DNA of 61,874 nt, filler included, from Hausera hauseri (GCA_046269625.1; 12 parts of 12 records of this genome joined end to end with filler, not necessarily neighbours in it), one strand, 5' to 3'. Shown: positions 27,806 through 56,765, counted from the first letter of the whole stretch. Notes: generated from the sequence alone by a model not told the origin. Translations and numbers: made by a program.

Positions 27806-29160
27806 CTATCGGACCGATAAGATGGACTTTAACATAGGTTCGCCTAAACATGCCTTACATTCTTTCAAAATAGTTGGTTGTGTCGCGTTCTCTAGTAAGA
27901 CTCTGGTAAGTGGCATGGCTAATCGAGGTTCATTTTGATATATGACTGGCAATTCTTGGATACAACGTTTTTCTTCCACGTTTAAAGATACGTCTCGTTT
28001 TTCGCATTCGTAGGTTAACAGGACTTCTCCGGTGACTCTTCCGAAAATACCTTCCTTCATTGGAATTACGGGCGATGCTAGTTCTGGATTCGCATAGATT
28101 AAGGCTAGTTTGGTTCTCATGATTTCCATATCCAATTTACAATCGTTCGCAATCATTTTGTGATATAGTTCTGCTAATCCAATTTGTCCCTTATAGTAGA
28201 AGAAGTCATCTCTATTCTTTAAATAATCTTCTATTCTTACGTCTTGCGTTTCCAACGTAAAGGTAGTTATTGCGGCCTCTGCCACAAAAAAATGCCTCGT
28301 AGTTAGTGGCATACATTACTACGTTGCATCGAGAAAGCATTTGCTTCTTAATGAATTTCAATCCGTGGTCCTCGGATATCAATATTGTGGGTGTAGATTG
28401 TTCAGCAACGTCCTTTCTTGGTCTGGCATTATTGTCGGTTGTCTCTACATACCTTTTCCCTGTAGTTTCATTAAAATTTATTTCCTTTATTTTAATAAAG
28501 TTACAATCGTTCATAGGTGGTGGAGTCCAAATGACTATTGAGTTCCTGAAGGTACAGGCACCATCTTGGATATGGCACTTCTGGTTTTCGGTATACGTTT
28601 TCGTAATACTATGGAACATCATCTTTTGGTTCCTCATTTCTGTTTCGTAGAAATCGACCACTACTATTCCCGATTCTCTTCCTTTTCCGGTATCATATTC
28701 ACCTCCTTTACAGTATCCGGTGTGCATATCCAGTTTTCCAATAGCTACTTTATATACTCGAATTATCTTTCCTGGCTGGGCCTCCAGCTCCATTCCATCC
28801 CATCTCAATCTTCCGGTTTCTTTAGCCTGTTTACACTGTTGTCGATCTAAATCCATAGGAATTAGTGGAGTTGTCGGTTTTACTATCGATGAATGTCCGT
28901 GCATGTTTCCGCAGTGGAAAATACTTCGCGATCGTCGCAACATCACTCTATTCCATCTATTGCGATTAATTCGCGCTGCTGATACAAGAAATACTTTTTC
29001 TCAATGGTTACTAACTTATGAGGTCGGGCATCTTCGAATAATTCCAAACCCATCAAGGAATATCTTTGTCCAACCTTAAATTTATCGCAGCCGTATACCG
29101 TGATTGCACCAAGTTGTCTTATTAACATCATAAGTGTTATTAATTTAATTATCCAATGTG
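27806..29160 (-). pseudogene. env: Chuvirus/gB-like class III fusion glycoprotein, N-terminal and central ectodomain
   Basis: Signal-like 'WIIKLITLMMLIRQLGA' then 'ITVYGC..YSL', 'FHCGNMHGHSSIV', 'GYCKGGEY', 'CHIQDGAC...IVIW', 'MYATNY', 'EGIFGRVTGEVLLTYEC', 'CIQELPV', 'PLTRVL...EC...PM'; frameshifted. Confidence 0.85.
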
Positions 29161-31188
29161 ATTCGCTATCTCGCGCTAAGATAGTTGGTATAAAATTTCT
29201 TACCGCATCTTCGATTCGAGTGGTCGGCCTGTTTCCATCTTCGTCATCAAATAACTTGGAACAATTTATCTCTCTAGGTATCTTCCTAGCAGCTTTTCTG
29301 ATCAATCCAATGGTCCTATTGAATTCATTTTCCTTTAGAGGATTCGCTTTGATTGCCAAGAACAATATTACTTTCCTTAATTCTTCCTTAGTATTCTCTA
29401 CCATAATTTTCTCGATTAAAACTTCATCAGGTAAGTTGCTTTTGTTCATGTTAAACCGAAATGTTCTCATTATCCTTGCTGCGTCGTATATTACCTTTTC
29501 TTTTTCATGTAACATTTCGTTTCTTGGCTCTGAATAATTCAGTATTCTTATAATGTTTTTCAGCAGCTCGTTTAACTCTTCGCTATCGGAGTTAATTGCG
29601 GTCATGGATAGTTGCCTTAGTTCTTCTATTAGAAATGCACTTTGGTCGATATCGTCTCTTATTTTCTTTGGTCTTCCAACTGGTCGCTTCTGTTTTGAAA
29701 CAATTGTTGTTGCTTCATTCATCGTTACTAGATTTTTATTGTATTGTTCCTGATCCTCCTCACTTTGGAGGTAGTCAAAATACATGACAGGGTCTCTGAC
29801 TCCAATAATGCGTCCTACGCAGTGTTCATCCCTCGCTTTTCTCACAGCCTCATCTCTCGTCTGTTCATCGGCAATTATCGCCACAATTAGATTTTATTCT
29901 TCCGGAATAATTCCAACATATACTAGTAGCTCAAGTTCGTCCAGTATCCTACCTCGCAAGTATAACCGATAATTTACTTCATCTTTTACACCGTTTTGTC
30001 CTATCCATTGTTTTACTTCCCTAACCGATGTTATCGTTGTGCATTCAATTTCTCTCTCTTCTATCCATTCGGCTGATATCTTTACCTTAATCGTCGTTTC
30101 GGTTTTAGTTTTCAAGAAATCAGCGTATTTCCTTATTAATAGTCTGGGTACTGAGCTATAAACGTTATTTTCGTTCGATAGTTTGGTTAGTGTAGGGATC
30201 AATTGTCTCAGTTTGCTCTCCGTCATGTTGACGTTAATCTGCTCAATTAATTCTCTTTCGGCCCGCGCGGGATCTAAAAGCATCTCAATATCAAATTTTC
30301 GGTCTGTTGGAAGAATACATTTTTGAAGAAGTTGGATAGGTGTTTTTGGATTTCGGTTGTACACATCTTCCAAATAAGCATCCCATCCTGAATCGTCTGT
30401 GATGTCTGGAAGCCTATAATCCAAAAATACCGTGGACGCTCTTTGTACATTTTCGCATATCTCGTTTAATCTGAACAGTATTTCTCTCATTAAGTTTATT
30501 CGAAACTCTGCTTCGTTTCCACACGCAAGTTGTATCCTTTTTAATGTAAATCCTAGTTCATCTGTAGGGAACAACCATTTTCTTTCGTAATCTGTTCATT
30601 CAGCCGTTACATCCGTTAATCATCTTTGTACGAATTCTCTTTTATTCGTTAACTTTGCTTGTGTGATCTTATATTTAGTCTTATAAGTCTCCAATTCTTT
30701 GCCTAATTCATCTAGCTCCGTAGCTCTTTGCTTTGTGCGAATTTGCAATTCTTCTATACCTTTAACTTGAGTTGCCAACTGTCACGTCTTGTCGTCGTCT
30801 ATCTCTACCATTGTCAATAGCAGCGATATTAGTCTGTGCATTGCTTTTAGAGTTTTTGAATCTGGATCTATTTCTTCAATCAGTTTCTTTACGAATTCAG
30901 TCTCGTCTGGTGTGAGGTGACAATCTTTGGTTATTTCTATCAATTCAACGCGACAATTTTGGTCGGTATCCGATGCGCACTCAAAAGAACGATGTAGATA
31001 TTTTAGTACTTCTTCTAACGCAATCCGATAATTTGGGCAAATATCCAACGTCGATAGATCACATATAGATATTTCATCTATGGGCCTTGTTGCCAAATGT
31101 CGTGCACCTTCTAGGCGGACACCTTTTAGTCTCATCGATAAGGCGATCTTTTCCTGTTTCGCCGATAATTTCATTTCTTCGGTCATGG
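29161..31188 (-). pseudogene. Accessory polyprotein region upstream of the glycoprotein: helical domain, ubiquitin-like domain, AT-hook-like motif
   Basis: Ubl 'IKVKISAEWIEEREIECTTITSVREVKQWI...YRLYLRGRILDELELLVYVGI' (~29880-30090); 'KRPVGRPKK'; open frame into the glycoprotein signal peptide (ORF 28943-29884). Confidence 0.7.
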
Positions 31189-31288
31189 NNNNNNNNNNNN
31201 NNNNNNNNNNNNNNNNNNNNNNNNNNNNNNNNTTAATTAATTAANNNNNNNNNNNNNNNNNNNNNNNNNNNNNNNNNNNNNNNNNNNN

Positions 31289-33395
31289 CAAACGGCCAAT
31301 TTCTGCCGATTCGGCAATAATGAATCCGATCAGTAGAGATTGCGCTGAAAGCCGGGAAAACGCTGCAAATATTTAATATTGAATTAAAAAGCAAAATGAA
31401 ACCTCACAATTTAACGGAGGACGTCATCTTTTGGAAATTGACGTCATTTTCGATGAATACGATTACTCTTGTTACGAAATTGCAGTGTTCCATTGGTCAA
31501 GTGGAAGGTGAATCAAGTCCTATGAAAATATTTGATCGGCATTCGTTGTTAAACGGTTGTCAAATCCTTAATTATCGTTGTAATCCCAGTATGAAATGGC
31601 TAATTTTAATCGGTATTTCGACACAGCAAAGTATGGTTGTTGCTGTTATGCACTTGTACAGCGTTGATAGGAAAGTCAGTCGCACAACCGAAGGTCATGT
31701 AGCATCGTTCGCACATCAAAATCGAAAACACTCCAAATGCATCCACGTCGTTTTGCTTCCCCGCTCGCAGAATACAAGGGGGAAAATAGCATACAATTGA
31801 AGCTGACCAGACTCCTACCGGAAATGAGCTGTTCATCAATAAGGCTGTCGATGTTACGTTCTCACCGGAAGCAGCAGCTGATTTTCCAGTAGCTATGCAT
31901 ACTACCAACAAATACAATATAGTATTTCTAATCACCAGATATGATTACATCCGCATGCACGATATGCATTTATCTAAATCGCATCAGCAGTGAAACAATA
32001 TTTGTCACATCACTGTACGAAGCCACCGCTGGAATTATCGGAGTGAACCGAAAGGGTCAGATTTTATGTTTCGGTTGAGGAAGACACGATCGTTTCTTAC
32101 ATTAAAAATACTCTTACATTAAATACTGGGCTTTACGAGTGACTACCAGAGGCAATCTGTCAGGCGCAGTAGACATTTTCGTTCACAGATTCAACAACCT
32201 TTTCAGTAGCGATCAGTATTCCGAGGCTGCAAAGTCGCAGCAAGTGCACTGAAAGGAATGTTAAGAACTGCGCAGCGATTCAGCGATTTCAGCAAGTGCC
32301 TACTCCAAGCGGCAAATCGCGTTTACTTCAATCTTTCGGAATTTTATTAGACCAAGGACAACTTCGCAAATACGAAAGTCTGGAACTCTGTGGACCAGTT
32401 ATTTTACTAGGCAAGAAACTTTTACTCGAAAAGTGATTGAAGGAAGATAAACTTAAATGCTCCGAAGAACTGGGTGACATTGTTAAACAGAGTGACCCCA
32501 CATTGGCATTATCCACTTATCTAATAGCAAATGTGCCTCAGACGGTTGTTCAGTGTTTTGCAAAAACGGAACAGTTTCAGAAGATTATTTTGTACTCAAA
32601 AAAGGTTGGATTCACACCAGATTATGTATACCTTCTGAGAAATCTGATGAGAGTAAATACTGACCAGGGTCTACAACTAATTTTTAAGGAAGCTAAATTG
32701 ACCGATCACTTACCTCTCATAATTGTCTCTTATAGATTCAATTTTGCTCACGATTTGATACTTTATCTGTACCGGAATCTACTGTAGAAGTACATCGAAA
32801 TATATTTGAAAAAATCAACCCCAAGCAACTGCCATTCGTCTTTGGTGGTGTGCTTGATGTCGATTGTTTCGATCACGTTATTATACAACTCATAATCGTT
32901 ATCAGAGGCCGATTCAGTACCGATGAACTTATTGCAGAAGTCAATAAACGGAATCGACTCCAACTGTTGTAGTCATGGTTAGAATCCGTTGAGCCGGCAA
33001 TTCACTATACACATGCCAAAATCTATTGGAATAGAAACAACAACCAGGGACGATCTCTGCAAGAAAACCAGTTTTACAACAGTCGTGTTGTGGGAAAGTA
33101 CTGTGAAAAGAGATCCCCATTTGGCATGTATTGCACACAAACGCAGTCAGTGTAATCAGGAATTGATTATAGTGTGTAACAAATACAGTTTCTTTAAAAC
33201 CGAAGCACAATACTTGGTTCGGTGTAAAGATTCTTATCCTTCATGTAAGACTTTTGGCGACAGCAATGAATACAGACGTCAGCTAATTGACCAAATCGTC
33301 CAAACAGCATTGTAAGAAACCCCGGTTCCTGAAGAATTCTCCATCGCTGTCAATGCATTTATGGAGGCCGATATGCCCAATGAATTTATTGATAA
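31289..33395 (+). pseudogene. CLTC: Clathrin heavy chain pseudogene (no evident introns, internally deleted, truncated)
   Basis: '[12 protein letters not shown]', '[17 protein letters not shown]', 'DFPVAM', '[23 protein letters not shown]', '[14 protein letters not shown]', 'KRDPHLAC', 'YRRQLIDQIVQTAL'; many frameshifts. Confidence 0.93.
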
Positions 33396-33592
33396 AAAAT
33401 TCGATGTTTTCATAAACTTTCTTATTGGTACTTGTTCAGACAGAATTAAAACTGCCTATATGTACCTCCGGCATTTGATATTCACATTTACAAACTCTCC
33501 GTTTTCGTCAGTGATATGGTGACTCAAATTCCGAGACAAGAACTACAAACTCTCATAGCATCTGTTGGTAAAACTGAATCGTCGTTCTCTAT

Positions 33593-33604
33593 TGGAGACC
33601 CCGA
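33593..33604 (+). promoter_or_regulatory. PBS-like site (tRNA-Trp)
   Basis: TGGAGACCCCGA versus the canonical TGGTGACCCCGA; lies upstream of the CsRn1-type gag. Confidence 0.5.
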
Positions 33605-34449
33605 AGGTTCATTAGAAAATGGGTTTGTTGAACATTTAAAAAATCGGTGCGACCACATCATCGAAAAACTCTAATTTCCTCCCAGAAACCCTTCACACCA
33701 TATTCGACCTTTAGTTTCTCAAAAAAGTACGATGTTCCACAAAATCTGTCTCCGAACGATAACATCCTGAAAGCTGCCCAACATTATCAGTTTGGTATCG
33801 AGTGGAAAACGGCAACAACGAACGCATTGGACGCACCGCGAGTCAACAGCAATTCACGACCGACCGGCAGACGTTCTCTCATCACAAGCATTCAAACACA
33901 GGTTGGTAAAATTCTTTTCGCTGATTTCTGTCCACCAGTGCGGCCATTTTTTGCACATATGCAAATCTTCGTGGCTGACACCAAATTTCATTTAAAAAGG
34001 CCTTTAAGTTCAAGAAATCTGGATATTATCTTATCACAATTAATATTTGCCACTGTTTTTTCTGGCCGCACACTCAAACATCTTAACCCAAAAGGTAACC
34101 GCCCAATCCCCCATGCATGTCAAAATTCTCCTGGGATTACCTCACTGAAATTTTCCTTCTTGGTATTCAGCAAAAATCCACTTATACAAACAATACGCGC
34201 TCCACTCACCGACAGGGCACAGTCCTTGTACAACTCCTTGTTCCTCCTATTCCACCCTTCTGACTTCTATCTCACACATCAAACTCTACCTGTACATCCT
34301 TCCGACTCGCTTTTGCCATTTACATGTCACTAACGTCCGATCATCTATCTCATGCTCCACGTCCGCCTTCGGAGTGGATCGGACCCAAATCCATCTTTCT
34401 CGGGTGATAAATCCACAAATACACGCAATATCTATCGTGTACCAAATTG

Positions 34450-35754
34450 TCAACAAACACGAGCTTCGTTAAATCTACCTTGTGTGGATTTTTTCTTGAT
34501 AAAAACAACTCCAGCAAACCATAGATCCAATTCCACCAACAGTGACTTAAATCCAACAACATCACTGACTTCTTTGTGCGAGCCAATAGTCTTTTGATAC
34601 TTCTGCCTACCAACGTCAAGCAACAGATCAATAACATTTCCGAACTGCTCCAATCATCGACACCATATGAAACACTCTGTGAGGCCGTACTCCATATCAC
34701 CGATCCCTCGATAGATCAATTTATACGAAAATTCTTTGACGATCATGCCATAGGATACCAAAAGCCATCCTATTTTCTCCAAATGGCCATTCTGCAGCTT
34801 AGCGCTTTAGGAGTAACACCTGTGAATACGCCGTTATTTCTTGTCATCTTTGCCTACCTCAATCAGAGCCTTGATCACCGTTGTCGACAAGTCCACTGCT
34901 ATCGAAAAACTGGCCATAAGAGCTAACATATCCTTTGAGATTCTCCGTACCAATAATTGTCTCCCAATTGCGGCTGCTACCGCATGTGCTCCAACTACAG
35001 ACACAACATTATTCATTCAACAATTGCAAATGATGAAGCAACAGTTTGAAAAGTTACAGCAGTCAATTTCGGCCATTACTACCCAACTAAACAATCTCAA
35101 TGGACCTCAACGAAGTGACACCAAACTTTCAAGGGAGCGAAGCACTTCAAGACAGTCGACTCGATCCATTTCACATGGCGGACGTATGATTTGCTTCTTT
35201 CACACTCGTTATCGAAAGGATGCAAGAAAATGCTTCTTGAGCTGTCGATTCTACAGCGAGCGATACTCTGTGAACAACCCTTTTTGCATATACCGCAACA
35301 ATTATCAGTCTCAAGCCAGGTCATGTATGCCTGGTTGTAAACACTAAAAAAAAATTTCCTCCTTTTCCTGCCTCTTCTTCCTTTTCTCCAAATCCTTCAA
35401 AAAACTAATAATGCCGCCAGATTTTACAACACATTCTGGCGCAGGCAATATCGCTCAATCTTCTGGCCGTTTCAACACCGCCTCTGTAGTCTTTTTGTTG
35501 AAAGCTGCAGTGTTATACAGAGATACCTCACATATCGAATTCCTAATAGATTCAGGAGCTGCCTTTTCACTCCTTCCCTTGTCCTTCACTCCTACATCCA
35601 CTACAATTTTCTGTCCTCCGCTCTTCACTGCCCGTGGGCAACCGTTGCACGTTGCAGGAACCACGGAACTGACTTTCACATTCGCCAACTTGCCAGATAA
35701 GTTTGTCTGGAAGTTCCACGTGGCCAACATTAAATCTCCCATAATAGGCTCAGA
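34450..35754 (+). mobile_element. Ty3/Gypsy CsRn1/Kabuki-clade element: decayed gag and aspartic protease
   Basis: Gag 'PYETLCEAVL...IGYQKPSYFL', CHCC knuckle C-x2-H-x9-C-x3-C (CFFHTRYRKDARKCFLSC), protease 'FLIDSGAAFSLLP...FVWKFHVANIKSPIIG'. Confidence 0.85.
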
Positions 35755-36435
35755 NNNNNNNNNNNNNNNNNNNNNNNNNNNNNNNNNNNNNNNNNNNNTT
35801 AATTAATTAANNNNNNNNNNNNNNNNNNNNNNNNNNNNNNNNNNNNNNNNNNNNTAAATATTAGTTTTAATAATTTGAATATACAATACGTCATACTATC
35901 ACGTGTAGCTTAAACTTGATAACGTGTGACGTATTTTTATATTCTGTGTATAGATATGTATTTATATATCAGCTTGTATCATCACAATTACATTTTTACG
36001 TTTTCGGAACTATATGGCAGCACTTCGTTTAACGATTTACTGAATATATTAATGGGTACATTGGTCATTATTTTGATATTTATGTTGCATACATTATGCA
36101 AAATACTTTTGTAAATTGAATCCTGGCATATTAACGCAATGTTGTACTATATTTCTATATCGGTCTTGAAATTAAAAATTTATTTTCTGTTTCTTAATTT
36201 TTTCTTACTTTAACATACGGGGTGATAAATAACATACCACGCCATTTTGTTTAAATAATATCTGAAGGTCATAAGTGACCTTCACATAAGTAACCAATCA
36301 CCGCGCAAAATTAAGATCCTAACTAAATTCACGTCAAAGAAAGTAACAAAACAAAAATTTATTTAAAATACATTATCACATTTCAACAAAGAATTGAAAT
36401 CAATTGTCTCGACACCGTTAATTCACTTCGTTAAT

Positions 36436-39400
36436 TCACACTTGTTGATCAGCAATCATCTTCAACTTTCTCCATTTTCCGTCTTTTAAGATCTCATAAA
36501 CTCCGCGTTCGAATCGAAATTGATACCAGACCCCTTTGATTTCGATATAATTCTTTCCTCGTTTTCTCATCGTCTTCAGTTTCAAACTTCGTCTTACGAA
36601 ATATTGCTGTTTTCGAAATTTCAATTGTTTGAAGATGTTTCCCAATTTTATGAAATACAGTCCATCTCTTAGATATACTCGTCTCCATTTATTTTTGTAT
36701 TGGATGTACATTTCGCCATTGATGGTTTTCAATTTCAGTAGACTTGTTCCGTGCTTGATCAGCATTTTCTTCTGTTGAATTACCACTTTTGTCCATTGTT
36801 TATTGAATTGTATGTAATATACTCCATTGACTACTCGAAATTTATACCAGCTGCCCAGGTATCGAATAAATGGTCTGCCGTTATCGTATTTTATTTCCAA
36901 ATCTTTACCTTCAACTGTGACAATTTGCACACCATTCTTGTACTTGAAACGTACGAATTGACCACCTAAATCCACATAAACCTTGCCGCCAATGAAACGT
37001 GTGTCCATCCAAATCTGACCGACCTGTATTCGATAAACACTCTTTCTTATATCAAATCTAAACATTTTACCATCAATCTCAATGAACGTATATCTATCCT
37101 TTATAGAAAATTTCACCCAGTTCCCTTCGATAAATAGTTGATGTCGTCCATTGGTATTCTGATACTGGAACCAGTGACCGGACAGTTCTAAATGGTCATA
37201 TCCATTCTTGAATCGATATCCCAGTTCTCTACCTTCAATGACAACAAATCTGAGTCTATCCCGAATTTTAAATAGCGTCCAATTTCCGCCAAACATTATT
37301 TGGAACTTGCCATCGATTACTCTGAATTGTCTCCATACACCATCAATGTTTATATAGAGATTCTTTTTGTTGAATTGCAATGGTAGTAATTCGCCATTGA
37401 AGTCCACGTGTAACTGTTTATTTATCACTTTTAATCCAAAAGTTCTACTATTGATTTTGATGATGTAGTTGTCGTCCTTGAGAAGTAACAGATACCATTC
37501 ATCTCCCAGTTTGATATACGTATTGATTTTGTCGTATTTAATACGAAGAAACAACCCATCTTTCACGATAAACGTTTTACCGTTGTGCATCCGGAATTCT
37601 ACCCATTTCCCACCGACCAGTATGTAGTAAATGCCACTGGTGACTCGTGTCCTGTACCACTGACTGCCCAGTTTCAAAAATCTCATACCGTTTTTCAGTC
37701 GAATTCGGACTTCGTTGCCATTTCGACGAATAAATAAGTTATTCTCTCTCACGAACACAATCTCCCAGTAACCATCAATTTCCAATAAGATTTGTTCATC
37801 TTCCAGTTTTGCTGCAATCCAATTTTTGTCAGGTTTCAAAAATATCTGATTGTTCATGCCGAATCTTAGGTGGATCAAACGATTGTCCATTTTCAAAAAT
37901 AGCTCCCCTTTCACAATTTTAATGGTTCTCCATTTGTTATTAATGAATACCGATAGATTATTGTTGTCCAGGAATTTTACTTTGAACCACTGCGTTCCGA
38001 ACAAAATGAACCGTTCTCCTGCCACTGTTTTGATCTCGACATTTCGTCCATTGATGATCATTGCTGTTTGTTTGGGCAACGATATTGGAATTTGTTTTTT
38101 GTTAGATTTATAGTAATACTTATTATTTTCCTTCACTATCTTTTCCCATTGTCCATTGATTTCCAGAAATTTCCCATTATTCAGGTTGGGTTGGTTTTTC
38201 ATGATTTTCCTGTAGTATCGATTGAAATCTACATCAGTTTGTCGGTTATATAGATTGTCGAGATACTTGTCATTGCAAATTTTCCATTTGCCATCAACTC
38301 GTACCAATATCCTGTTTTCATCGAACAACAAATTGTACGATTTGGCTCCATCACGCAGTACCCAATATTTACCCATATATTTAACGGACATCCAGTTTTG
38401 TCGACCTTTCAATTCAAATGTCACCTTATTCACCACACGAAACTGCAACTGCCGTTTACCGAATTTCAAATAAAGTTGACTGTTCTTGTCGGTTACTTTG
38501 AACCATTTTCGACCGACCTTATGGTGCTGAGTTGTTTTCATAATCCTCAGCGGAATCCAATCATTTTGCGCCCTGTAATGGAACATTCCATCACGAACTT
38601 TTGTTGGAAACATGGCGCCATTTTGAACGTAAAACTGCCTGCCATTTTGGTAAACAATTGGGTAGTAGTTCAAATTTGACAAATGATGTCGAATCGGTAC
38701 CCAGATGCCATTAATGATGTAAAAGAAGTGACCATCTCTCCATTCTACCTTTCTCCAAACATTGTCGATTTTTAGTTCCATGAAACCGTCTGACAATTTC
38801 ACAGCAATCCACATTTCTTCGAAAAACACTTGGATTTCCTGTCTGACAAATTGCATTGGCATCCACTTGGCGAACAGTTTGATAAACAGCTTTGGTCCGT
38901 GGAATTTTATCAACTGTTTCTTTTTGTTTAAGACGATAAACGTTTTAGTGAAGGAAAATTCAACTGGATACCAGGTTTCGCTCAGTTTCAACTGTACGTT
39001 TCCATTTTCAAATTGGAATTGATACCACTGTCCGTCGATTTCAATTAAATACTTTCCATGATCTCGTTTAACTTTTCTCCAAACTTTACCAAATTTGTAA
39101 TACAAATTCTTTGACGACATTTTAACTTCTGTCCAACTGTCTTTGATCTTGTAGAAAATACTTTTCTTAACAACTTTTATTTCAATTTTCTCCTTACTCT
39201 CACTTACAATAAATATCTGATCACCAACGAATTTCACTGGGACAAATTCGTCAAACAGCCGTAAAGAAACTTTTCCTTTTACTTCATTTATTTCGTACCA
39301 ATTGAAACCCAACTTTAGTAAACGTCTCTCGCCTAAATATTTAAATTCCCTGAACTTGTCACCGACTTTCATGAACAATTTCTTAGATGACAACTTGATC

Positions 39401-42400: not shown

Positions 42401-42864
42401 TGGCCACATGCTTTTGCATTTTGAATTATAAAAACAAACCACAGCGTCCCTACAATGACCTTGTTGTTTCACACGGTAGATGACCTTCATGTGTCTCGAT
42501 ATCTTGTTACATTTTATCTTACAATGAACTCGACATTGACGGACTCCGTAATTCTGTCGACACCGCTTTTTGCACACTCGGAATTTCTCACAGTTTTGTT
42601 TCTCTTTCGACTTGATTATTTTCGATGGACACTGGCCAGCTGAAATGGTTTGGATTTGATTAATACACTATGGAAAATAAATACAGTAAAATTACTTTTT
42701 ACATAATACCCATGGTACCAATAATTCCAGTCATCCATTTCTTTGAGATTTCCTTTCGGACAGTTTATAAATTCATTGTGGTCACTCTTCGTAACATAAA
42801 CATTTGTCCAAATAGTTTTTATTGAAAGGGAAACCAACAATGAAACAATCACAATTGGTTTCAT
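36436..42864 (-). CDS. Giant (~2,100 aa) probably secreted K/R- and aromatic-rich repeat protein; exon 1 42864-42710, 70-nt intron 42709-42640, exon 2 42639-36436 across a gap
   Basis: Signal-like MKPIVIVSLLVSLSIKTIWT; GT..AG intron restores frame; Cys-rich N-terminus; stop-free ORFs on both sides of the N gap; ~18-aa repeat; AATAAA ~75 nt after the stop. Confidence 0.8.
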
Positions 42865-43728
42865 TAATCGGCATAAAATGCGCTCACCATATCGTATGAA
42901 CCATTTATACAAAATGCTATTTTGCTACAGAATGTTATTACTCCTTCTGTTGAGATTAATTGTCTTTTAATATTGCCCCAGTGCCACACACTGTTAAATG
43001 ATATTTGAGACACTTTGTATTAGCTCTACCTATTCATTAAACATTCTTTTATTTTTACTTGTTTGACTTACTTTACTAATTACTACTGATATTTTACATG
43101 TAAGAAATTTTCATTTATCTTGACATTTTTCATATGACAAGTGAGACAATATGTCTTATGGAAGAGTCATCTTTCCAAAATGTTGTCAAAATTCAATCCA
43201 TTGCTAAATCAGTAATATTTATCCAACTTATATTCCTACATTTTGAATTACAAGGAAACATTTTTTACTGCCACAAAGTAAGGTACACAAGGACGTGGTT
43301 AATAATATGAAAATACCTTTTGGACATTTTAAATGCGGCCTCATTTCGCACTTGTACGAGTCATCCATAATACGTTTATCAATTTTGCACTTTGAAGATT
43401 ACGACTATAACAGTATCTCCAAAACAGTAACGAAAATGTTGTAAAAGTTCGAACTTCCTAAACGTAGTGGGAGAAATTTGAACAAGTTTCGTGATTTTAT
43501 CTTCACTCAAAAACGCTTTTCACATATTATTAATCATCATTATATTTTGTACATGTCTCTCTGATTATTTGTTATAAAAATGACCCATATTTACAGTAAA
43601 ATCCCTCATTTATGGTACTTGTACAATANNNNNNNNNNNNNNNNNNNNNNNNNNNNNNNNNNNNNNNNNNNNTTAATTAATTAANNNNNNNNNNNNNNNN
43701 NNNNNNNNNNNNNNNNNNNNNNNNNNNN

Positions 43729-46576
43729 ATTGCGGTTTGTCATCATCAGTCTGTAACTATTCGAAATATATTGCAGCATTTTGAATCCCCATGATTTTTC
43801 CAACGCAATATTCTGTATGTGCCTTTCTTATGGCTTCATCTTTGGTTTGCTCGCTGGCGATTATTACTATTATTCGGTTTTCTTCCAGCGGTATAATTCC
43901 TATGTCTATTAAGGATTCTAGCTCATTTAATATTTTGCCTCTGAAATAGAGTCGGTAATTAACTCCTTTCCTACCATCTTTATTTATTACTCGTTGTCTT
44001 ATATCCCCAACGGTGGTATAAATAGTGCATTCAATTTCCTCGTCGTTCATCCATTCGGATGATAGTTTCACTTTCATTCCCATTCTGGCTTATTTTTCAA
44101 CAATTTGGCGTATTCTCTTATTAGGAGCTTGGGTATAGCGCTGTATGCGGTGTTTTCACTGTATACCTTGGTCAAGGTTGTAATCAATTTCCTTAACTTA
44201 TCTTCACTTATGTTTATTTTCAATACACCGCTCAATTTTTTTCCAGCTAGTGCAGGATCACATAGCATTTCCACGTTAAATTTCGTCTTCTGGACACCAG
44301 GAGGTGACTCATAAATTTGTATTGGAGTTCTTTGACTTTGTTTGGTTAAACCTCGGAGATATACATCCCATTCGGCATCATTATCTGCGTCCGGTAACTC
44401 GGTTCATTAATGCTGCGTGTTCAACTTGCACTCTTTCGCGCAGTTCTCTTTTCTGTGGTTGCAGCGTTTTCATTATGGATATTCTAAATCCATCTCCGTT
44501 TCCGCAAGCTTGTTGTATTAACTTTATTAATTGACACATTTCTTCTGGTTGTATGAAGGCTTTCTCCTGATAATTAGTCACTTCTGCGATTCTATCTCTT
44601 TGCCATATTTGTATAAATTTTATTTTGTCGTTAATTTCAGATTCCGTAAGAGAATACTTGTTATTATAGACTTCTGCTTCTCTCAGTAATTCGTTTAGCT
44701 CTCGCTGTCTTTTCTCGAAGCGTAACCGGGTTTCTTTTATCAGACGTATTTGATCTGTTAGTCGTCTGGCTACTACTTCGTCAATTTTTGCCATTTTTGT
44801 TAATAGTAGAATTAATTTGTGTGTTTGATTTAATACTTCGGCGTCCGGATCTATTGCGTCCATTAGCCTGCCTATGAACTTAGCTTCGTCGCTCGTCAAC
44901 TGAAGATCCTTCCTAATTTCCGTTAGTTCGGTCTGGAAATGTAGGTCGAACCCTGGTGTCCATTCTACTGGATTTTGTAAATATTGTAGTGTTTACACTA
45001 GAGCATTTCGGTAATCGTTACATACTTCTAATGTTTTTATTTCCTGTGCTGAGATTTCTTTAACGGTTTCTGTATTAGGTTTTGTATTTTTCTCCAACGG
45101 ATGTTTGCTAAACTTCGCTGAAGATCACTTAGCTTGTTTCATTTCCTGTAGAATTCCTTTTCCCCTATCATATTATATACCTCTGTTAGTGTTGTTTGAT
45201 CTTGATCCTTGCTCATAAATTCAAGTTTTCAAAACGATTCGAATTTAATTTGCAGTTTTGCTTCCTCTTCCATCGTACCGATGTCTAGTAACATTTCCGC
45301 CAATTGGTGTCTCATTATAGGCTCAGTTATAGCAAATTCCCTTAGCCTTTCGTTTATTATTCCTGCTATGGAAGGTAGCAAGTCTATCCATTTCCTTATT
45401 TGTTTGGCTATTGTCGGTTTAATATAGATTATTTCGTCTAATGTCTCAAGAGCTTCTTTTAGTTCGTGATCTGGTCCTCGTATAAATTCTATGATATGTT
45501 TCATGTAGTTAAATTCTTCATTATACTCACTTAATTCGAAAAGACAAGCACGTATTATTCTCTGTGCTTCTGCTTTTTCAGGGTAAACTATACCGATTCT
45601 TAAGTCGTTGATTTTGGTTCGTATTTTGTTTTCTCTTTCAATGCGTATTTTCAAATCTGGGTATAGTCGAAGACTATCCTTTGTGAAGCTGCACACTCCT
45701 ATTAAAGGGGGGATATTTGCTGGGTTTATGCCCAATATCTCCAGGTCGGCTTTAGTCAGTTTATACACTGGCTTATTATGAAGGTAAGAAATTATCGCTT
45801 CTTCAATCTCATATATCAATCTCTCTAATTTGCGTCTTACGCGTTTCAGTTTTGGGTTGTCTTTTAGTGCGTTTAATATTCCTTGCGCTTGATTAACCTG
45901 ATCGAGAAACGGCTCGTTTCTATTCCACCATATTTTCGTAAAATCGATCCCACTCTTTTGTCCACCCTTCTGGTTTATTTTGCCAACTTCCTATTAAGTC
46001 TTGTGGCGTTTCTTGGAGTTCGTAAGGTGTGTTTTCTTCCTCTTTGTGAGGGCCAGGTTCAAGCTTTTTATATAGCTTCTCTATGAATTGTTGTTCTTTT
46101 CCGGAGATATCCAATTGTTTGCTCATTTGCTGGAGTTTTGATAGGCTCTCATGTAACCTTTCAGGATCGTTTAGTGCGTTTTTTATTTTGGTTAGTTCGT
46201 TTGTATTTTTCCAAGATTTTCTAATATTCCCAAACTTAACAGTTTTTCTCTCTTCTGATTCCTCTTCACTTGGTGGTAAACGACATACTTCATTAATTTT
46301 GTCAGTATTTGAGATATTTGATTTTTCCAGGAAGTCTTGAGCTATACGAGGAGTATTTAACTCCGTTTCATCATTTAAAGTGATGGTGAAGTCATCCTCC
46401 CGTTCTACATCCTTTTTAATAGGGAGTCGTGAACGAGTTCTCGACCTTCTCCTAAGTGAAGGGTTTCTACCCTTATTTTTGGTTATCTTGAGTATTAGTG
46501 GACCAATGAATTCGCTCTCAACCTCGTCTGTTGTTTTGTCCTTATCGTGAGACGTGACCTCGGTATCTGCATCCAA
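43729..46576 (-). pseudogene. Accessory region downstream of gag: RS-rich stretch, helical domains, ubiquitin-like domain (homologous to contig F 29161-31188)
   Basis: 'LTSDEAKFIGRLMDAIDPD', 'IQQACGNGDGFRI', 'YSAIPKLLIREYA', Ubl 'KVKLSSEW...YRLYFRGKILNELESLIDIGI' match contig F segments in the same order. Confidence 0.75.
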
Positions 46577-47965
46577 GTCTACACTTTGAAGATGTAGTCG
46601 GCTTTTCTTCCGCCGCTTGATTTAGGTTTTTCTTTCTGGCCATGTTATTATTCCTAGGAGCTATAGCCTTTTCGTACTCTGTTTTCGGTTCTCTTAATCC
46701 ATGATAAACTTCCATTTGCTGCAACTTTTCTTCATACTCCTTTCTGGCCTTGATTACTTGTGGATTATTAGACTCACCCATATTTCTTACATACCTTTGT
46801 AAATCCAGCATCTCGATAATCATGCTTATATCATTTCGTTTTCTATATATTCCTTCCAAATTATCATTTATCGTGCTAGCTTTACTGGTCTCTGAAAATG
46901 ATACACTTCGTGGATTAGGGAATGGCCTAACTATATGTCCTTTTTTACCGTATGAATAACAAATCAGATTCCCGTCTTGGCCGATCCTTTGTCGTTCGTC
47001 TTCATTTACTGGTGATTTGGGTCTGCCTGCTATTTTGTTTTGAGTCGGTTGAGCTTGCTTATCTATTCCGTTATTCCTATTTTCGTAACTTCGATTATCT
47101 ATATATCCGCTCTTATTGCTTCGGTCATTATTTTGGTTTCTATACGAAATATAGCCTCTTTTGTTATAAGGATTGTATATGTTCCGATTATCACTAAAGT
47201 TCCTATTGTCATATTTCATGATGCGATTAGAGGCATTTTGAGCTCTATTCTCATAGTCTCTGTCCTTATTATTATAGTTAAACCTTCTATTGTTTCGGTT
47301 CCTATCCCGAGTATCGCGATCATTATTTCTGTCATATCTATCATTCTGTCTAGCGTATCTATCTAATGCCATTTCTAAATTTTGAGCCAACTGTAATGCA
47401 GTCTCGAAGTTGTCTGGTCGAGCTAAAATTAGTTGCTTAACTAAATCTCTGGATCATATACCGTTTATTAATTGAGTTGTCATCATGACATCTAAGTCTG
47501 GTGGGCTAGCTTTTTCTGCTGCTTTGCGTTCCGCGTCTGTCTTTGCCTTCACCGCATTGGCTATCCTTAACGTACTCACGTAACTATTGGCAAGCTTCTT
47601 TAGTGCAAATGCAAATTGAGTAACCGACTCACCTTTTTGTTGCGTTTTATTCTGGAAGGCCATAAGCTTTTGTTGTGGCGTCACCGTCGGTAACAGTTTA
47701 CGATTCAAGGCTCCTACTACGGAGGACCATGATTTCTTCTCGTCATGGGTAAGTTCGCTATAGGCGTCTGCAGCCTGGTTTTTAAGTATAATGACAGTCG
47801 TTTAATCCTAACGTCGGGCGCAAGACTGGCACCTTCTGCGTTCAATTTATAAGTTCTTAAAAAGTCATTTAACCCGTCCGGGTCACCGTCATATGCCGGT
47901 AAGTTCAATGAATCGAACGTAAATATATCAAGCTTCTGTGCTATAGCTGGGTTATCTGCTGCCAT
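46542..47965 (-). pseudogene. gag: Ty3/Gypsy gag (decayed)
   Basis: 'LPAYDGDPDGLNDFL', MHR-like 'QQKGESVTQFAFALKKLA', 'RPDNFETALQLA', R/N-rich linker, degenerate knuckle 'CYSYGKKGHIVRPFP'. Confidence 0.85.
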
Positions 47966-48194
47966 CTTTATTTTATTCGTTTTGTCTACCTTATGAATTC
48001 TAGGAGGCGCTTTAAGTTCTCTCGCGAAAATTAGTTCAGTGTCGGATAAACCGTGTTTGTCTATTACTTTGTCCTCAATATAGAGTTTATTCCANNNNNN
48101 NNNNNNNNNNNNNNNNNNNNNNNNNNNNNNNNNNNNNNTTAATTAATTAANNNNNNNNNNNNNNNNNNNNNNNNNNNNNNNNNNNNNNNNNNNN

Positions 48195-48346: not shown

Positions 48347-48463
48347 TGAAATGCGAAAACAAAGATCGAATGTGCGAGGAATGGGCTGCGGCAGGGGAGT
48401 GTGAAATCAATCCCATCTGGATGATTTCGAATTGCAGGCAGGCGTGCAAGAAATGTGACGATG
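48347..48463 (+). CDS. Exon encoding a ShKT (ShK toxin-like) domain
   Basis: AG/GT-bounded 117-nt phase 1-1 exon: KCENKDRMCEEWAAAGECEINPIWMISNCRQACKKCD, six-Cys ShKT pattern. Confidence 0.9.
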
Positions 48464-49924: not shown

Positions 49925-50300
49925 TCTTTCTTTCTGATTGTCTCTCTTTCTCTCTTGATTTCTGTTTGTTTTTCGCTCTACGACTGCCAGTCTTGATCAT
50001 TGAAGTGATGATGATTTGTCTCTCTTTCTCTCTTGCTTTCTGTTTGTTTTTCGCTCTACGACTGCCGGTCTTGATCACTGAAGTTATGATGGTTTCTCTC
50101 TCTTTCGCTTTAGGACTGGAGGTCTTGATCACTGAAGTTATGATAGTTTCTCTCTCTTTCGCTCTACGACTGTCGGTCTTGATCACTGAAGTGATGATGG
50201 TTTGTCTCTCTTTCTCTCTTGCTTTCTCTTTGTTTTTTGCTCTACGACTGCCGGTCTTGATCACTGAAGTGATGATGGATTTTCTCTCTTTCGTCTATGC
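49925..50300. repeat. Tandem repeat, units of ~57-75 bp
   Basis: Recurring CTCTACGACTGCCGGTCTTGATCACTGAAGTGATGATG + CT-rich block, about five copies. Confidence 0.85.
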
Positions 50301-50950: not shown

Positions 50951-51867
50951 GACGTTCACTAGTGGTGATGGACACTGGTTCCTACAGATTTGGACGCTAT
51001 ATACTCAAAGGCTCCCATGCTTACCCCGCTTTGGCGTCGTCACCAAAGGGTTTTTCTTCTTTGCCCTATAGAAATGTCGTATAACACCCCTGCCCCTTAT
51101 TTTCCCGACCACGCAACCCACCCGCATCACCCGGTGACCCGATGCCCACGAGCCCCTTCGCCGGGTGACCACCTTGCACCAGGCTGGCTTAGTCGTGCAC
51201 CAGGTTTTTCTTTCTTTGCGCTATAGATTGCAGAGCCTGCAGGGGTATACTTTTTATACAAGGCCCCTGCAGGCAAATAATACAGATTCCGTGCACATAA
51301 CACTAATGAGGATATCAGATAACAACAACAACAACAACAACGTAAACGTGATAGTTCGCTGAGTATCTAACGAGGGTTTCCTCATCTAAAGTTAATTACA
51401 TTTCATCTATTAATGTTAAAGCGACCCATGACAAATATGACAGTGGTAGAAAATGAAAAAAATATATACCAAGACGGACTACTGCTACTGTACTGGCGAT
51501 AAGCACGTGAATGAAATATTTTTTTTTTAATCATGGCAGAAAAATGAGCATTTCGCCTTTTTTACATTTATTTTTAAATTTTCTTTCTATGTAGAACAAC
51601 AGCGCCAGCTTCAGATTCTATACAAGTGCTCTACTACAAATGATAAAAACTTTTCGTTAGAGGCTAAAATATTACCTTTTATTCCGAAAATGTGTCACTT
51701 GAGTTCGAAATGGGAAAACAGCAGTAGCATGCACAGAGAACAAGCAAACTTTGCTCTTCCTAGATAAGCAATTTCTCATGTACCGGTATTTTCTATTTGG
51801 AAATTATTTTCAGCAACAGTACTATTGTATTGAGCCTCGTTTGCGCATTGAGCCTCTTTCTTTAAAT

Positions 51868-52438
51868 GACCTTTGTAAGGCCTTCGACAAAATTGACCAT
51901 GGACTACTACTTAGGAAACTGCAGGCATACAGCTTTCACCCAGACGTCAGCATGTTGATCCAGTCTTTCCTAGAGGGCAGGATGCAACGCGTTTTACAAG
52001 ATAACTCTATCCAGTCCTTACGCTTTTTCTACAGGAGTGCCACAATGATCTATACTAGGTTCTCTCCTATTTAATATCTTTGTTAATGATCTGCCCTTGA
52101 CCTTGCCTCAAGATGAATGCCTTATGTGTGCTGATGACGCAACTCTAACGGTCGCAGGAGAGAAAATTCAAGTCGTCGAGGCACATTTACAACAGCATTT
52201 GAACACTGTAAACAGTTGGCGTAAAATGAACAAAATGTCCATAAATGCTAATAAGACTAAATCTCTAATTATCTCCACTCGTCAGAAAATTTTAAGCTGT
52301 CAAACACAACAGCTGCAAATAACGTTGGAAAATTCAGCTATTGCTCAAGTTTCAGAACACACTTTACTAGGTGTAACTATAGATCAATCATTAAGTTGGA
52401 AACCTCATGTTAACTCACTAGCCAGGAAGCTATCACAA
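51868..52438 (+). mobile_element. CR1/L2-group LINE reverse transcriptase fragment
   Basis: 'DLCKAFDKIDHGLLLRKL...SFLEGRMQRV...GVPQ..ILG...FVNDLP...CADDATL...MSINANKTK...LLGVTIDQSLSWKPHV'. Confidence 0.9.
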
Positions 52439-53796
52439 NNNNNNNNNNNNNNNNNNNNNNNNNNNNNNNNNNNNNNNNNNNNTTAATTAATTAANNNNNN
52501 NNNNNNNNNNNNNNNNNNNNNNNNNNNNNNNNNNNNNNATCATCATCACTGTCGTGTAGTGATCGAGACATTCCGACCGAGGGAGCATGGGAGCAGAGGA
52601 GCTTGGTTGAGACGTAAAGAAGAAAAACACGAGGGAGCAAGGGGAACAAGTCTGGACCAAGATGGCAGGGGTAAAGCTAGTCACTAGCATCATGTGCCGT
52701 GTCGTTTAGTGAACGGGTCTTTCCGAAACTTTTAAGAGGTAGAATCAATAAAAACAGGCGTCGTATAAGGTTTCTAGGGATATTAGTCACCAAGACTTTC
52801 ATCATCAGGCGGTGAGACTTTAGGGAGCTTCCATCATCATCATGTGCCGTATAGTGAACGAGGCCTTCCAACACCTCCATCTTTGACATGTGAACCTGGT
52901 GGGACGATACAGATTTCTTCTTAGGATCGGCAATAGCGGGTAGCGGATCATCATCATTAGTGCCTAAGACCTTCCGTTACCTCCATGATATGATATAGCT
53001 TAAATAACAAAATATTAAACATAAGACCGGGGAAGACATAGAGCATGTTGGTTCTTCTAACTGAACGGCAATCCTATAGCTCATCATCATTGTATATTAG
53101 TGCCCAAGACCTGAGAACCCCTCCACGGCGTTATATAACTTAAATATTAAACATTAGACCGGGAAGGCATAGGCCATATTGGTTCTTCTAACTGAGCACA
53201 AAACCTACAGTTGTGGATCATCAGCATTACTGACCAAGACCTTTCAATACAACCAGAGGTCTGTAGACCTTGGAGGCTTCGCCACGGGGAACTGCTCTTG
53301 CTGACTGGCAGACCGCTGTAACTTGCGGTCAGTTTTCATGTAACTAAAAATTAAAGATACGAGGACACCGAAATTACAACATAAAGCCATTTTTTTATTT
53401 TTTTATTTTTACACTTTTTATTTGCCTTGGTACATAGGAGAAAAACGTTCTAATTTTAGTCTTGTGCTTGGTCTTTTTTGACGGTTGATCAAAAGTATGT
53501 GCTGAACAGTGGACGAGGTTGCCGGTTCGATGTTCGGATCTGTAGTAATATTAGTACTGGTACTCGTTTCCGATGATGTAGGACTCGTTGTTTTCATTGT
53601 TCTTTTTCGATGTGCTCTCAATTGTAGGGGCTCGGTTTCGGCTTGGCTTGGTAACTGTTCATCAGACGTGTTTTCGCTTTATTTGTTCGTTACGATGTAA
53701 ATTTTTCCCATGGTCTTATTACTTCCTGGTAATATAAAATACTACGCAAAATGTAGTCCCGTTTTGGCTTACGTTATTGCATCGTGCTATGTGAAA

Positions 53797-54735
53797 TCAC
53801 TGAACCAAAAGGTACTTCCGGCTTATGTCTGAGAATTCTCCAATTGGCTTTGGATACGCCCATGCTCCTTGGAAATTATCTACCTCGCTAATCATGTAGT
53901 AAAATCCAGCAAACCAATGGGTCCCTAGCAATACCATATGAGTTAGATTGGCCACCCTGAACAAGTTTGGGTAGGCAGTACGTGACTCGGTCATGTGTAC
54001 GAATCGAAAAACTCGATAAACCTTGAAAAATCTAGGAAATCGAATAATCGGACAAATTCCCGTGGCAAACTGGACGAAATCCAAAGGCAGAAGACTCATG
54101 AAATCGATGTAAATGTCTTTTGAACGAAGATATTTTCTACAGAGCTTTTTCGAGTCGTACACCATGAGTCCTTGGTCTAGATATCCCGTTCGAAACTGAA
54201 CAACAATGTCACAAACGTAGATAAAATCAAACAGACCGTCGAACGTGAACCAGCAGGCAGGGCATCCGTCTTGGATCTCACGAAACGCTTGTCTGGCGAT
54301 GCATGTCCACAAGTTGTACAAGACAGCCAGAGTTATGACATTGAGCCAGTAGAACATGAAAATGCCGTCGTGCTGAATGACCAGCCCTTCGCTCCATTTC
54401 GCTGAGCAGTTTGATCTCTGGTCTTCGTAGTCAAAAGACGCTGTCATATTCTGAATGTCATGATTTCTGGTTGAGAACTTCTTTAGAAAGGAATCTTCTC
54501 GATCGAGTGTGTGTTTATGTTTTTTGATGCCTTGCATTTCACTGGCTGCCTTGAGTGAGTTTTGAAGGCGCTTCCAGTTTCTGCTCGTGACTTTGCCCAA
54601 TCGTTTCTGAGGACGTGATGCCTCTGTGTTGTCCTTACCGTTTGATGATGAAGCTTCCCCTGCTTCGTCTTTCCACGTTTCGTCCTTATTGTGTACGCCC
54701 TCATTAGTCAAATTTCTGTTCACAGCAGTTTTCAC
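53797..54735 (-). CDS. Cyclic nucleotide-gated channel alpha-like subunit, N-terminus to S5 (ends before the pore)
   Basis: 'FYWLNVITLAVLYNLW', 'DIVVQFRTGYLDQGLMVYDSKKL', 'LLPLDF', 'IRFPRFFKVYR', 'ESRTAYPNLFRVANLTH', 'HWFAGFYYMIS'. Confidence 0.85.
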   Translation of the reverse strand: MKTAVNRNLTNEGVHNKDETWKDEAGEASSSNGKDNTEASRPQKRLGKVTSRNWKRLQNSLKAASEMQGIKKHKHTLDREDSFLKKFSTRNHDIQNMTASFDYEDQRSNCSAKWSEGLVIQHDGIFMFYWLNVITLAVLYNLWTCIARQAFREIQDGCPACWFTFDGLFDFIYVCDIVVQFRTGYLDQGLMVYDSKKLCRKYLRSKDIYIDFMSLLPLDFVQFATGICPIIRFPRFFKVYRVFRFVHMTESRTAYPNLFRVANLTHMVLLGTHWFAGFYYMISEVDNFQGAWAYPKPIGEFSDISRKYLLVQ

Positions 54736-54749
54736 TGTGGCACTGTTTT

Positions 54750-55948
54750 CTACTGAGAGTAATTTTGTGCTCTATTGTTTATACAAAATCTCATGGCTCC
54801 ATCCTTCTTCTTGACCATTACCACTGGAGCTGTCCATGGGGAACAACTCGATCGGATTATCTTATTTTCTCTCATTTTTTTTATTATTTTTCGTGCTTCC
54901 TGTTTTTTATCGTATGCTAACCGATATGGTCTTTTCTTGATTGGCTTATCTTGTCCATCCTTTAACTTCATAGTATGTTGTATTATATTCATTGTGCCTA
55001 AATCATAATCATTTTGAGCAAATCGGTTCTTATTTTTTCCAGCAGTTCGATTAGAATCTTTTTCTCTTCCTTAGTCAGGATTTCGCATTTCTGTAACTTT
55101 TCATTCCAACTGATACTGGTGACTTCATTTCTTCCTTTATTTCCCTCCGGTTCCATCTTCAACTTTTCTGTCATTATCTTTTCTATTTCATCTACATCTG
55201 AAATAGTCGAGTAGACTTCTTCTCTTGTTATTTCTTCGATGGTCATTATCTTTCCTACTTTGGTATCCTTTCGTAATACCTTTTCTTTATTTGCCGTATT
55301 GCAAATTCGTAAGTGGACTTTTCCGCCCCTTACTCTATCTACGTGAGGAGCGACAAGGACTTCGTATTTTTCCATAACTTGTTGGAATGGTTCAAAGTGA
55401 ATTATCTCAGGTAATGATTTACTTTCTATTCTTCCAGAAAGCACTATCTCGGATCGTGGTTGGATTGTGATATCTCTTGTTAATGAAACCATTCCTTCAT
55501 TTTTATCCTTACTGAATGTTTTAGGTTGACCTGTTCTCACGTCTATGTAAACATTTTCCATTTCATTTAATATATCGCACCCAATTAAGATTTCATTAGT
55601 CAGGTTGTCTGCTATCCTTATGGTGTGCTTTAAAATTTGTTTACCAATCTTAATATCGGCATCTAGGACCATCTTAATTTCTTTTTCTGCACCGAATGCT
55701 CCAACATTTATTAACATAGATGTTGGTTTACTTATCTTTTGTTTTAATTCTTTTGACAATTGGGTCATTCCAATTATTGTTGTCGTGGATCCAGTATCTA
55801 ACAGAGCAATCAATGGATACCCATTCACCTCTATTTCTACCTCCGGTCTTATGGGTGATTGCCGTTCATTTTTATCATCGGTTTTATATGTAGATTCGTG
55901 TTTATAGGGTGTCAGATTTTCGTACAAACTTTGTTTCATCTGTTGCAC
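54750..55948 (-). pseudogene. pol: Ty3/Gypsy protease, spacer and RT N-terminus (truncated)
   Basis: 'ALLDTGSTTTII...ILIGCDIL'; RT 'QHTMKL...PIKKRPYRL...IIRSSCSPWTAPVVMVKKKDGAMRFCI'. Confidence 0.92.
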
Positions 55949-55977
55949 TTGATGTATAGGGTAAAGTCCTGTATGTA

Positions 55978-56765
55978 CTACGTATCGGGGGCTGAAGGGT
56001 TCACCAATGTTTGTTCTTTATATAACTGTCCGTGATATTCATCTACGGGATCTATATGAGGTAAATGCGTTACCAACCTTTGTCGGTATTTCTGTTTTTG
56101 AGACTTCAGTGCTAATTGTTTAATTCTGGTTATTCGGTTACGTTTTGATTTTACTTTTATCTGATCATATCTGATATTGTTTTTATCAGGTATACTGTAC
56201 GGCGAATCTCTTCCGTCCTTCTTCTGTAGAATCATCTTTTTCCATTTGGCATTGTGATTTGCTAGAAAACAGCTTGCTACTGTCTGTATTACTGCTATTA
56301 AAATTTTCCATGAGCATTCTACTGCTGCATGTATTCCGTATGCTTTGCCTAGCGCCGTAAATGCTGTTCATATTGCGCTAATAATAAAATATATAGCTAA
56401 AAAACCGGGAGCCGCTTGGCCAAAATATAAAGACTTTCCCCACATCTTTTCCATAACGTTTTGTGTTACTTTCTTTAGGTAATCTTTATTCATTATATTT
56501 TCCCATTGTGGCGATCCTTTACCGTCCCACATTACTCTCCTGGTTAACTCTGTTATAACCCCTTGCCTTTGTTGTGGGAACAACAGCATTCGTTGGTAAT
56601 CTTCTATATTTTGTTGCGTATAGATTTCTCCGTGTGATATCCCTGGTAACGGTTCGAATCTCTGGTTTCTCTGTAAATTAATTAAGCTTAATGTTTTTGG
56701 TTTAGACATTGGTTCTATTTTTGGCATTCTAATCCATTTTCTATTGTCAATCTTAAACATTGGAG
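55978..56765 (-). pseudogene. env: Chuvirus/gB-like glycoprotein C-terminus (membrane anchor and tail) directly upstream of the protease
   Basis: 'PMFKI..KW', 'GEIYTQQNIEDYQRMLLFPQQR', 'MWGKSLYFGQAAPGFLAIYFII', 'AYGIHAAVECSWKILIAVI'; one frame from 56760 to 55978 with one internal stop. Confidence 0.82.

Follow-up and report, generated by a model that had tools for sequence, protein, structure and literature searches.

The window analysed here is a stretch of 61,874 nucleotides (filler included) of the Hausera hauseri assembly GCA_046269625.1, in which 12 unlinked contigs are joined by spacers of the form N44-TTAATTAATTAA-N44. Three of these contigs (I, F and K, each 4–5 kb) carry, on the minus strand, decayed coding sequence of large long terminal repeat (LTR) elements of the Ty3/Gypsy type. 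Contig I holds a gag followed by an accessory region and a likely ubiquitin-like domain (Ubl), contig F holds a homologous accessory region and Ubl that run in one frame into the start of an envelope glycoprotein (env), and contig K holds the end of such a glycoprotein followed by an aspartic protease (PR) and the beginning of a reverse transcriptase (RT). Because the contigs are unlinked and spacer-joined, the order in which I, F and K stand in the window is uninformative.

The order env, PR, RT is present on contig K alone, marked by matches to PF24664 (Monjiviricetes_fusion), RVP and RT, and this contig is direct evidence of an env upstream of pol. The glycoprotein part of K covers positions 433–588 of the PF24664 profile (E=9e-23), and its membrane anchor (hydropathy 1.96, peak at 56406) contains a stop. 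The best PDB match of the RT start is Ty3 RT 4ol8 (E=8e-12), the next family being lentiviral POL at E=0.005, and the RT start is thus Ty3-like and not of the BEL/Pao type. PR precedes RT on K, and the RNase H and the integrase core are missing from it. The linker between PR and RT is taken to be dUTPase-like by eye, on its pattern, with no Pfam or PDB support, and the repeated sequence at 53420–53796 is presumed by eye, from its motifs, to be an integrase-like tail of pol, with no Pfam match. The LTR-like end of K matches contig J (50700–50950) at 78%, where the matching sequence is present as a direct repeat.

The place of most of the RT, RNase H and integrase on K is occupied by a fragment of a host cyclic-nucleotide-gated (CNG) channel, which comprises 324 stop-free codons on the element's strand and has single-copy depth. 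Depth was read from three public runs (X1, X2 and X3), whose contigs were placed on K only, at 80% likeness; 10,264, 109 and 669 contigs were placed, respectively, mostly 80–95% alike, and 7–23% of the words of K 54750–56765 are present in X1/X2/X3. In X1, the summed contig depth, which differs from copy number and derives from run pieces listed at up to 419 bases, was 6,292–25,761 over env (one variable bin, 56064–56204, at 208), 1,531–2,428 over PR, 5,479–20,399 over RT, 1,524–14,775 over the pol tail (53385–53807) and 76,427–224,393 over the last 420 bases (52539–52961), whereas it was 3.4–4.5 over the CNG fragment, which two contigs match without difference. The same contrast between env/PR/RT and CNG was observed at lower levels in X2 and X3, and eight X3 contigs depart from K at 54780, i.e., at the border of the CNG fragment. 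Because of this contrast, env is counted among the regular components of a highly repeated family, and the CNG piece is assigned to this copy. The K copy is likely a chimera in which template switching put a piece of host CNG-channel mRNA in the place of most of pol, and the fragment is likely an LTR-mediated retrocopy, which would make it a case of an env-bearing element transducing a host mRNA. Among the LTR-mediated retrocopies treated by Tan et al. (2016, PMC5131818), the usual form is a chimera with discontinuous LTR elements at its flanks, and the CNG fragment likewise represents host mRNA on the same strand between discontinuous parts of an LTR element.

On contig F, a single frame of 747 codons with four stops (31186–28946) holds a helical region, the Ubl, a second helical region, a hydrophobic segment and the glycoprotein start. 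Over an alignment of 437 codons, F and I are 38–51% identical, with identities of 0.60, 0.70 and 0.41 at codon positions 1, 2 and 3; each of the four stops of F corresponds to a sense codon in I, and the same holds in reverse for the two aligned stops of I. The stops are therefore attributed to decay, each being sense in the other copy, and the identities by codon position together with these stops suggest that F and I represent old, separately constrained subfamilies; this pattern of differences points to purifying selection, i.e., to constraint at the protein level. The accessory region of F has a single relative (P0001, 150 aa, E=4e-10) among 1.84 billion protein representatives, and is thus nearly without relatives. 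The helical spacer between the Ubl and env gave no Pfam match and no Atlas match at ≥0.9; a Bcl-2 identity for it is unsupported, since no Bcl-2 was found among its 14 PDB matches at E≤10. The hydrophobic segment, with a hydropathy peak of 1.66 at 29140, has the glycoprotein directly on its 3′ side, which contains 13 cysteines, two sequons and two frame changes and ends at about 27826. In the decayed coding sequence beyond this break, 60 residues are 28% identical to an open reading frame (ORF) of contig B (8561–8740), a similarity reached by 0 of 500 shuffles; a dynein heavy chain (Pfam DHC_N1, E=0.098) was rejected for this part, with no PDB match. The sequences at F 26422–27826 and B 8561–8740 are taken to be CUB-domain-like by eye, from their pattern, with no Pfam match.

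The gag of contig I matches Retrotrans_gag at E=4e-4, under the curated Pfam cut-off, contains a single degenerate CCHC knuckle (46920–46961) and is interrupted by one frame change and one stop. The minus strand of this contig has four open frames of at least 200 codons, compared with none in 300 shuffles. About 2.9 kb of coding sequence between gag and the Ubl matches no Pfam family, and the final 1 kb of this accessory region is homologous to contig F. The protease motif D[ST]G is absent from all three minus-strand frames of contig I, in which two relaxed look-alikes (DIG) occur in other contexts. Since the gag in I has no protease after it, the pol of the I/F family must follow env. A first-pass annotation of this DNA had described gag, a helical region and a Ubl without a protease on I, the homologous region, Ubl, signal and glycoprotein on F, and at least two diverged subfamilies, all of which is borne out, although the Ubl is weak; its account of K as glycoprotein, membrane segment, DTG protease and Ty3/Gypsy RT also stands, but it overlooked the CNG fragment that cuts the RT short.

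A profile built from both Ubl copies gave 31 PDB matches at E≤1, 30 of them of the ubiquitin type, the best scores being sums across polyubiquitin repeats and the single-domain scores poor. By itself, the Ubl of contig I matches Pfam ubiquitin at E=0.003, and that of contig F has no Pfam match of its own. In a Foldseek search with a predicted Ubl structure, ubiquitin-fold proteins formed the majority of the 45 rows listed, none of them at E≤0.001. A ubiquitin-like domain in I and F is likely. The C-terminal GG is missing from both copies, and for this reason a role in binding or as a decoy is more likely for the domain than one as a cleavage signal.

The glycoprotein of F matches PF24664 at profile positions 78–228 (E=2e-11) and 299–424 (E=4e-15); the matches exceed the cut-off in all three pieces from F and K, and hydrophobic segments lie at both ends of env. 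A PDB sequence search with the glycoprotein gave no match, and an AlphaFold2 model of F residues 1–747 (predicted local distance difference test, pLDDT, 41) was too poor, with no Foldseek match at E≤0.001 in BFVD or PDB. By analogy with the Chuviridae-like glycoproteins treated in PMC13524379, the glycoprotein would belong to class III (gB-like).

Table 1. Contigs I, F and K and the features assigned to them (positions in the window).
Feature	Position	Strand	Basis
Contig F	26422–31188
Other decayed coding sequence past the glycoprotein break	26422–27826	−	tblastx to contig B
Chuvirus-type (putatively gB-like, class III) glycoprotein, N-terminal two thirds	27827–29104	−	PF24664 profile
Hydrophobic segment, predicted internal env signal sequence, in frame with the accessory region	29096–29155	−	Hydropathy
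Helical spacer of ~240 codons between Ubl and env	29156–29872	−	Position equals the BCL2-like slot of Burro
Likely ubiquitin-like domain, contig F	29873–30094	−	51–53% identical to the domain of I
Helical accessory region homologous to I	30095–31186	−	38–46% identity, third positions most diverged
Contig I	43729–48094
Likely ubiquitin-like domain, contig I	43860–44089	−	Pfam ubiquitin, PDB profile search
Orphan accessory coding region 3′ of gag, several frame changes	44090–46621	−	Open frames of 233, 253 and 203 codons
gag: capsid-like region, Arg/Asn-rich linker, CCHC knuckle	46542–47965	−	Retrotrans_gag, knuckle, ATG position
Contig K	52539–56765
3′ non-coding region with internal repeats; final 420 bases LTR-like by copy depth	52539–53400	−	Depth, contig J match
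Repeated sequence, putative C-terminal tail of pol	53420–53796	−	Depth; by eye
Host CNG channel alpha fragment, intronless	53797–54779	−	CNGA2 9upf E=3e-41; Ion_trans E=2e-18
Ty3/Gypsy RT, first part, truncated	54780–54983	−	Ty3 RT 4ol8
Beta-rich linker, PR to RT	55235–55531	−	By eye
Aspartic protease, DTG at 55798	55556–55849	−	RVP E=2e-8 and three related families; Atlas 0.96
Glycoprotein: C-terminal ectodomain, membrane anchor, cytoplasmic tail	55978–56763	−	PF24664

That such a layout is unreported, which the first-pass annotation left unconfirmed, is not supported, as both the Burro elements and GAG-ENV-POL elements with a gB-type env are already in print. GAG-ENV-POL elements were reportedly found in nematodes by Sacco et al. 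in 2022. Burro (GYPSM1) elements are giant planarian Gypsy-like elements in which gag, a Ubi/SUMO-like domain and env stand in frame before PR-RT, within a single ORF of 4,873–5,140 aa, and decayed copies with stops and frameshifts occur in Dugesia japonica (PMC6431247). Like the contigs described here, Burro has a Retrotrans_gag with CCHC knuckles and a long accessory region, and then env, with a Ubi2/SUMO-like domain upstream of env in the position that the weakly scoring Ubl has here; it also has a dUTPase-like domain between PR and RT, where the linker of K is similar in size, with the pattern seen by eye only. However, Burro has two to three knuckles compared with one in contig I, the length of its ORF contrasts with about 8.1 kb of summed coding stretches from gag to the RT break here, and its env was assigned by HHpred to the gypsy-Env/paramyxovirus type, whereas the env here is of the chuvirus type (PF24664). 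The BIR, MATH, ankyrin and BCL2 domains of Burro were not found in the I/F pieces with Pfam and PDB, searches whose power was lowered by decay and which included no profile–profile comparison; because these domains were undetected, the elements are not filed as Burro itself.

The second precedent consists of GAG-ENV-POL “ancient errantiviruses” with an HSV/gB-type ENV, described from Nematoda, Bryozoa and Platyhelminthes (Chary and Hayashi, eLife 2026, PMC13524379), with at least 10 bryozoan and at least nine flatworm rows in the portion of supplementary file 1 drawn on here. In these multi-copy elements, a Ty3/gypsy pol is likewise preceded by a gB/Chuviridae-like glycoprotein. However, they are intact, whereas the elements here are decayed, and they have gag upstream of env, whereas the gag-Ubl of I and the Ubl-env of F are bridged by homology rather than found in one copy. 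The words ubiquitin, polyprotein, accessory and Burro each have zero occurrences in the main text of that study. As all of its flatworm elements are of the gB type, the env of Burro, which is unnamed there, may also be gB-type, in which case little new would remain here; if the Burro env is truly F-type, one slot has hosted two unrelated fusogen classes. The same glycoprotein family has been captured by the Anakin elements of mosquitoes, which carry a Chuviridae glycoprotein (Dezordi 2020, as cited in parts of PMC13524379, PMC10084718 and PMC12440569) and are BEL/Pao elements, whereas the elements here have a Ty3-like RT and an env before PR. Extra ORFs in rotifer elements are likewise covered in the parts of PMC10084718, PMC12440569 and PMC5408684 used here.

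Taken together, the elements belong to the GAG-ENV-POL errantiviruses as a new member, decayed and Burro-like. No description of a gB-type env paired with a Ubl was found in the literature, a search to which figures, the authors' repository and Repbase, where Ubl or single-ORF forms of the published elements may appear, did not belong. What the literature searched leaves undescribed is only the accessory region without known relatives and, possibly, the combination of a Ubl with a class III env. The elements add a further family or host lineage to the few Ty3/Gypsy elements that make their envelope mid-polyprotein, and they connect two reports, that of the Ubl-before-env layout in Burro and that of GAG-ENV-POL elements with a gB-type env. 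Current views are not overturned by them.

The contigs probably derive from decayed large Ty3/Gypsy LTR elements with a chuvirus-type glycoprotein upstream of PR/RT, likely encoding one Burro-like gag-accessory-Ubl-env-pol polyprotein, and we infer that this layout is common, as a whole, to the I/F and K families. Several observations weigh against this reading. The F–K overlap amounts to four residues, and when the two ends are aligned as DNA the score is 52, which 122 of 200 shuffles reach (mean of the shuffles, 53.8). No contig or relative spanning the Ubl to the protease was found, and intact relatives were absent from the longer-protein search (with the K protease, K env and F env pieces, for which the result is weak evidence) and from the searches of the 1.84 billion representatives, viral contigs and metagenome contigs. 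The scans of viral contigs returned no locus and those of metagenome contigs one (L001), which consists of 14 matching residues inside unrelated sequence and was dropped as chance. The Ubl scores lie under the cut-off, the AlphaFold2 model of the domain has a pLDDT of 40 with no Foldseek match at E≤0.001 (BFVD, PDB), and the RT of K ends after about 75 residues, on which the Gypsy assignment rests. The similarity of the 3′ part of F to contig B has a tblastx E-value of 0.003 within the stretch, X1 may be the same sample as the stretch, and the frame of K changes between env tail and PR (55978–56017) and again between PR and RT, so that a single ORF is unsupported there.

As the 3′ part of F resembles the post-integrase ORF of B and the pol tail of K enters non-coding DNA, F and K are perhaps different families, and the simplest reading of this takes F as a copy with an internal deletion, from a family with an extra post-integrase ORF, with K representing another family of the same env-pol order. 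Carried further, this would make the layout a composite, in which K would be a GAG-ENV-POL element of the ordinary kind, lacking a Ubl and having a short gag, and I/F a separate family (gag-accessory-Ubl-env) that has a pol of its own and a post-integrase membrane-protein ORF as in B, or is non-autonomous. The chain from gag through accessory region, Ubl and env to PR-RT would in that case never have been observed in the form drawn. Such a composite is unlikely, but it deserves some weight, as the contigs are unlinked, the ends of F and K overlap without DNA similarity, K has no post-integrase ORF of the kind that F resembles, and the published GAG-ENV-POL elements are not monophyletic (PMC13524379). 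It is opposed by the placement of the I/F pol after env that follows from the protease-less gag end of I, by env pieces that tile one profile in order, and by a composite order equal to that of Burro. The PMLK of F lies about 14 residues past profile position 424 and K begins at 433, a placement that agrees within about five residues. The matching point between F and K noted in the first-pass annotation therefore fits by profile position but finds no counterpart in the DNA ends, and of its proposal of a class III fusogen in mid-polyprotein, env-PR-RT on K and Ubl-signal-env on F hold, the element shared by I/F and K being an extrapolation.

The frame changes of K bear on a different question, namely whether env and pol each had an ORF of their own, with expression through splicing, reinitiation or programmed frameshifting, the in-frame run of F being particular to the F subfamily. 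The change from env tail to protease and the three ORFs described for GAG-ENV-POL elements (PMC13524379) would agree with this, which we nevertheless consider improbable: a slippery heptamer XXXYYYZ is absent from the env/PR overlap, frame changes are common lesions in I, F and K, Burro is one ORF, and run contigs across the frame-change region differ from K by gaps, in places that are not listed. The PR/RT overlap contains one A-rich heptamer. The frame changes of K are inferred to be decay rather than programmed. It is very improbable that the glycoprotein, rather than being a gene of the family, comes from a stray endogenous viral element of the chuvirus-like kind, or from a piece of mRNA, caught in single copies. 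Copies here do capture foreign mRNA, as K shows, and Jingchuvirales glycoproteins have been noted near Gypsy fragments without clear capture (in the relevant part of PMC10084718); however, env is as repeated as PR/RT while the CNG piece has a depth of about 4, which largely refutes this idea, and env is found on two contigs and follows a hydrophobic signal, sharing the frame of the accessory region. It is also quite doubtful that the elements form a separate giant Gypsy provirus lineage, defined by a class III fusogen in the Burro env slot in place of an F-type one, a wholly orphan accessory region on both sides of the Ubl, a second, post-integrase membrane protein (the 3′ part of F and contig B), which would give it two glycoproteins, and host-mRNA pickup.

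If the Burro-like polyprotein reading is correct, signal peptidase and the protease of the element may plausibly process the product, by analogy with viral polyproteins in general. The Gag and accessory domains would remain cytosolic, the internal hydrophobic segment would thread the env ectodomain into the endoplasmic reticulum, where signal peptidase would free it, and the membrane anchor would bring the chain back to the cytosol. The element protease could then excise PR, RT, RNase H and integrase, and the glycoprotein may form trimers through which particles could fuse with other cells.

Some further observations were made on the remaining contigs. Contig B (7410–12186, plus strand) carries long decayed ORFs after an integrase-like end, with a signal-like segment and a membrane segment near 9400–9480, and would represent an element carrying orphan genes after pol; its part at 10632–10958 matches contig C at 14498–14812 (29%, E=3e-11). 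The integrase-like C-terminal end of B is presumed from motifs, with no Pfam match, and a region of B is taken by eye to be DEDD-type nuclease-like. Contig G contains a decayed clathrin heavy chain fragment that seems to lack introns (31289–33700, Pfam Clathrin); it lies immediately upstream of a gag of the Gypsy-like type with a DSG protease (34500–35754, by eye) and is possibly another captured mRNA. Contig D (17459–21119) contains decayed intronless pieces of host genes, i.e., kinase-like (by eye), cullin (E=2e-48) and DEAD-box (E=5e-5). A 122-codon ORF on contig E (24308–24673) is taken by eye, from a motif, to be similar to a Polinton/adenain-type cysteine protease. Contig H (35855–43628) has two minus-strand ORFs of 934 and 1217 codons across a 100-N gap, with K/R/W-rich beta-hairpin-like repeats and no convincing Pfam family. 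Contig J carries a non-LTR RT-like fragment (51703–52438, by eye), and contig L (56866–61874) is a satellite with a 15/30-base period.

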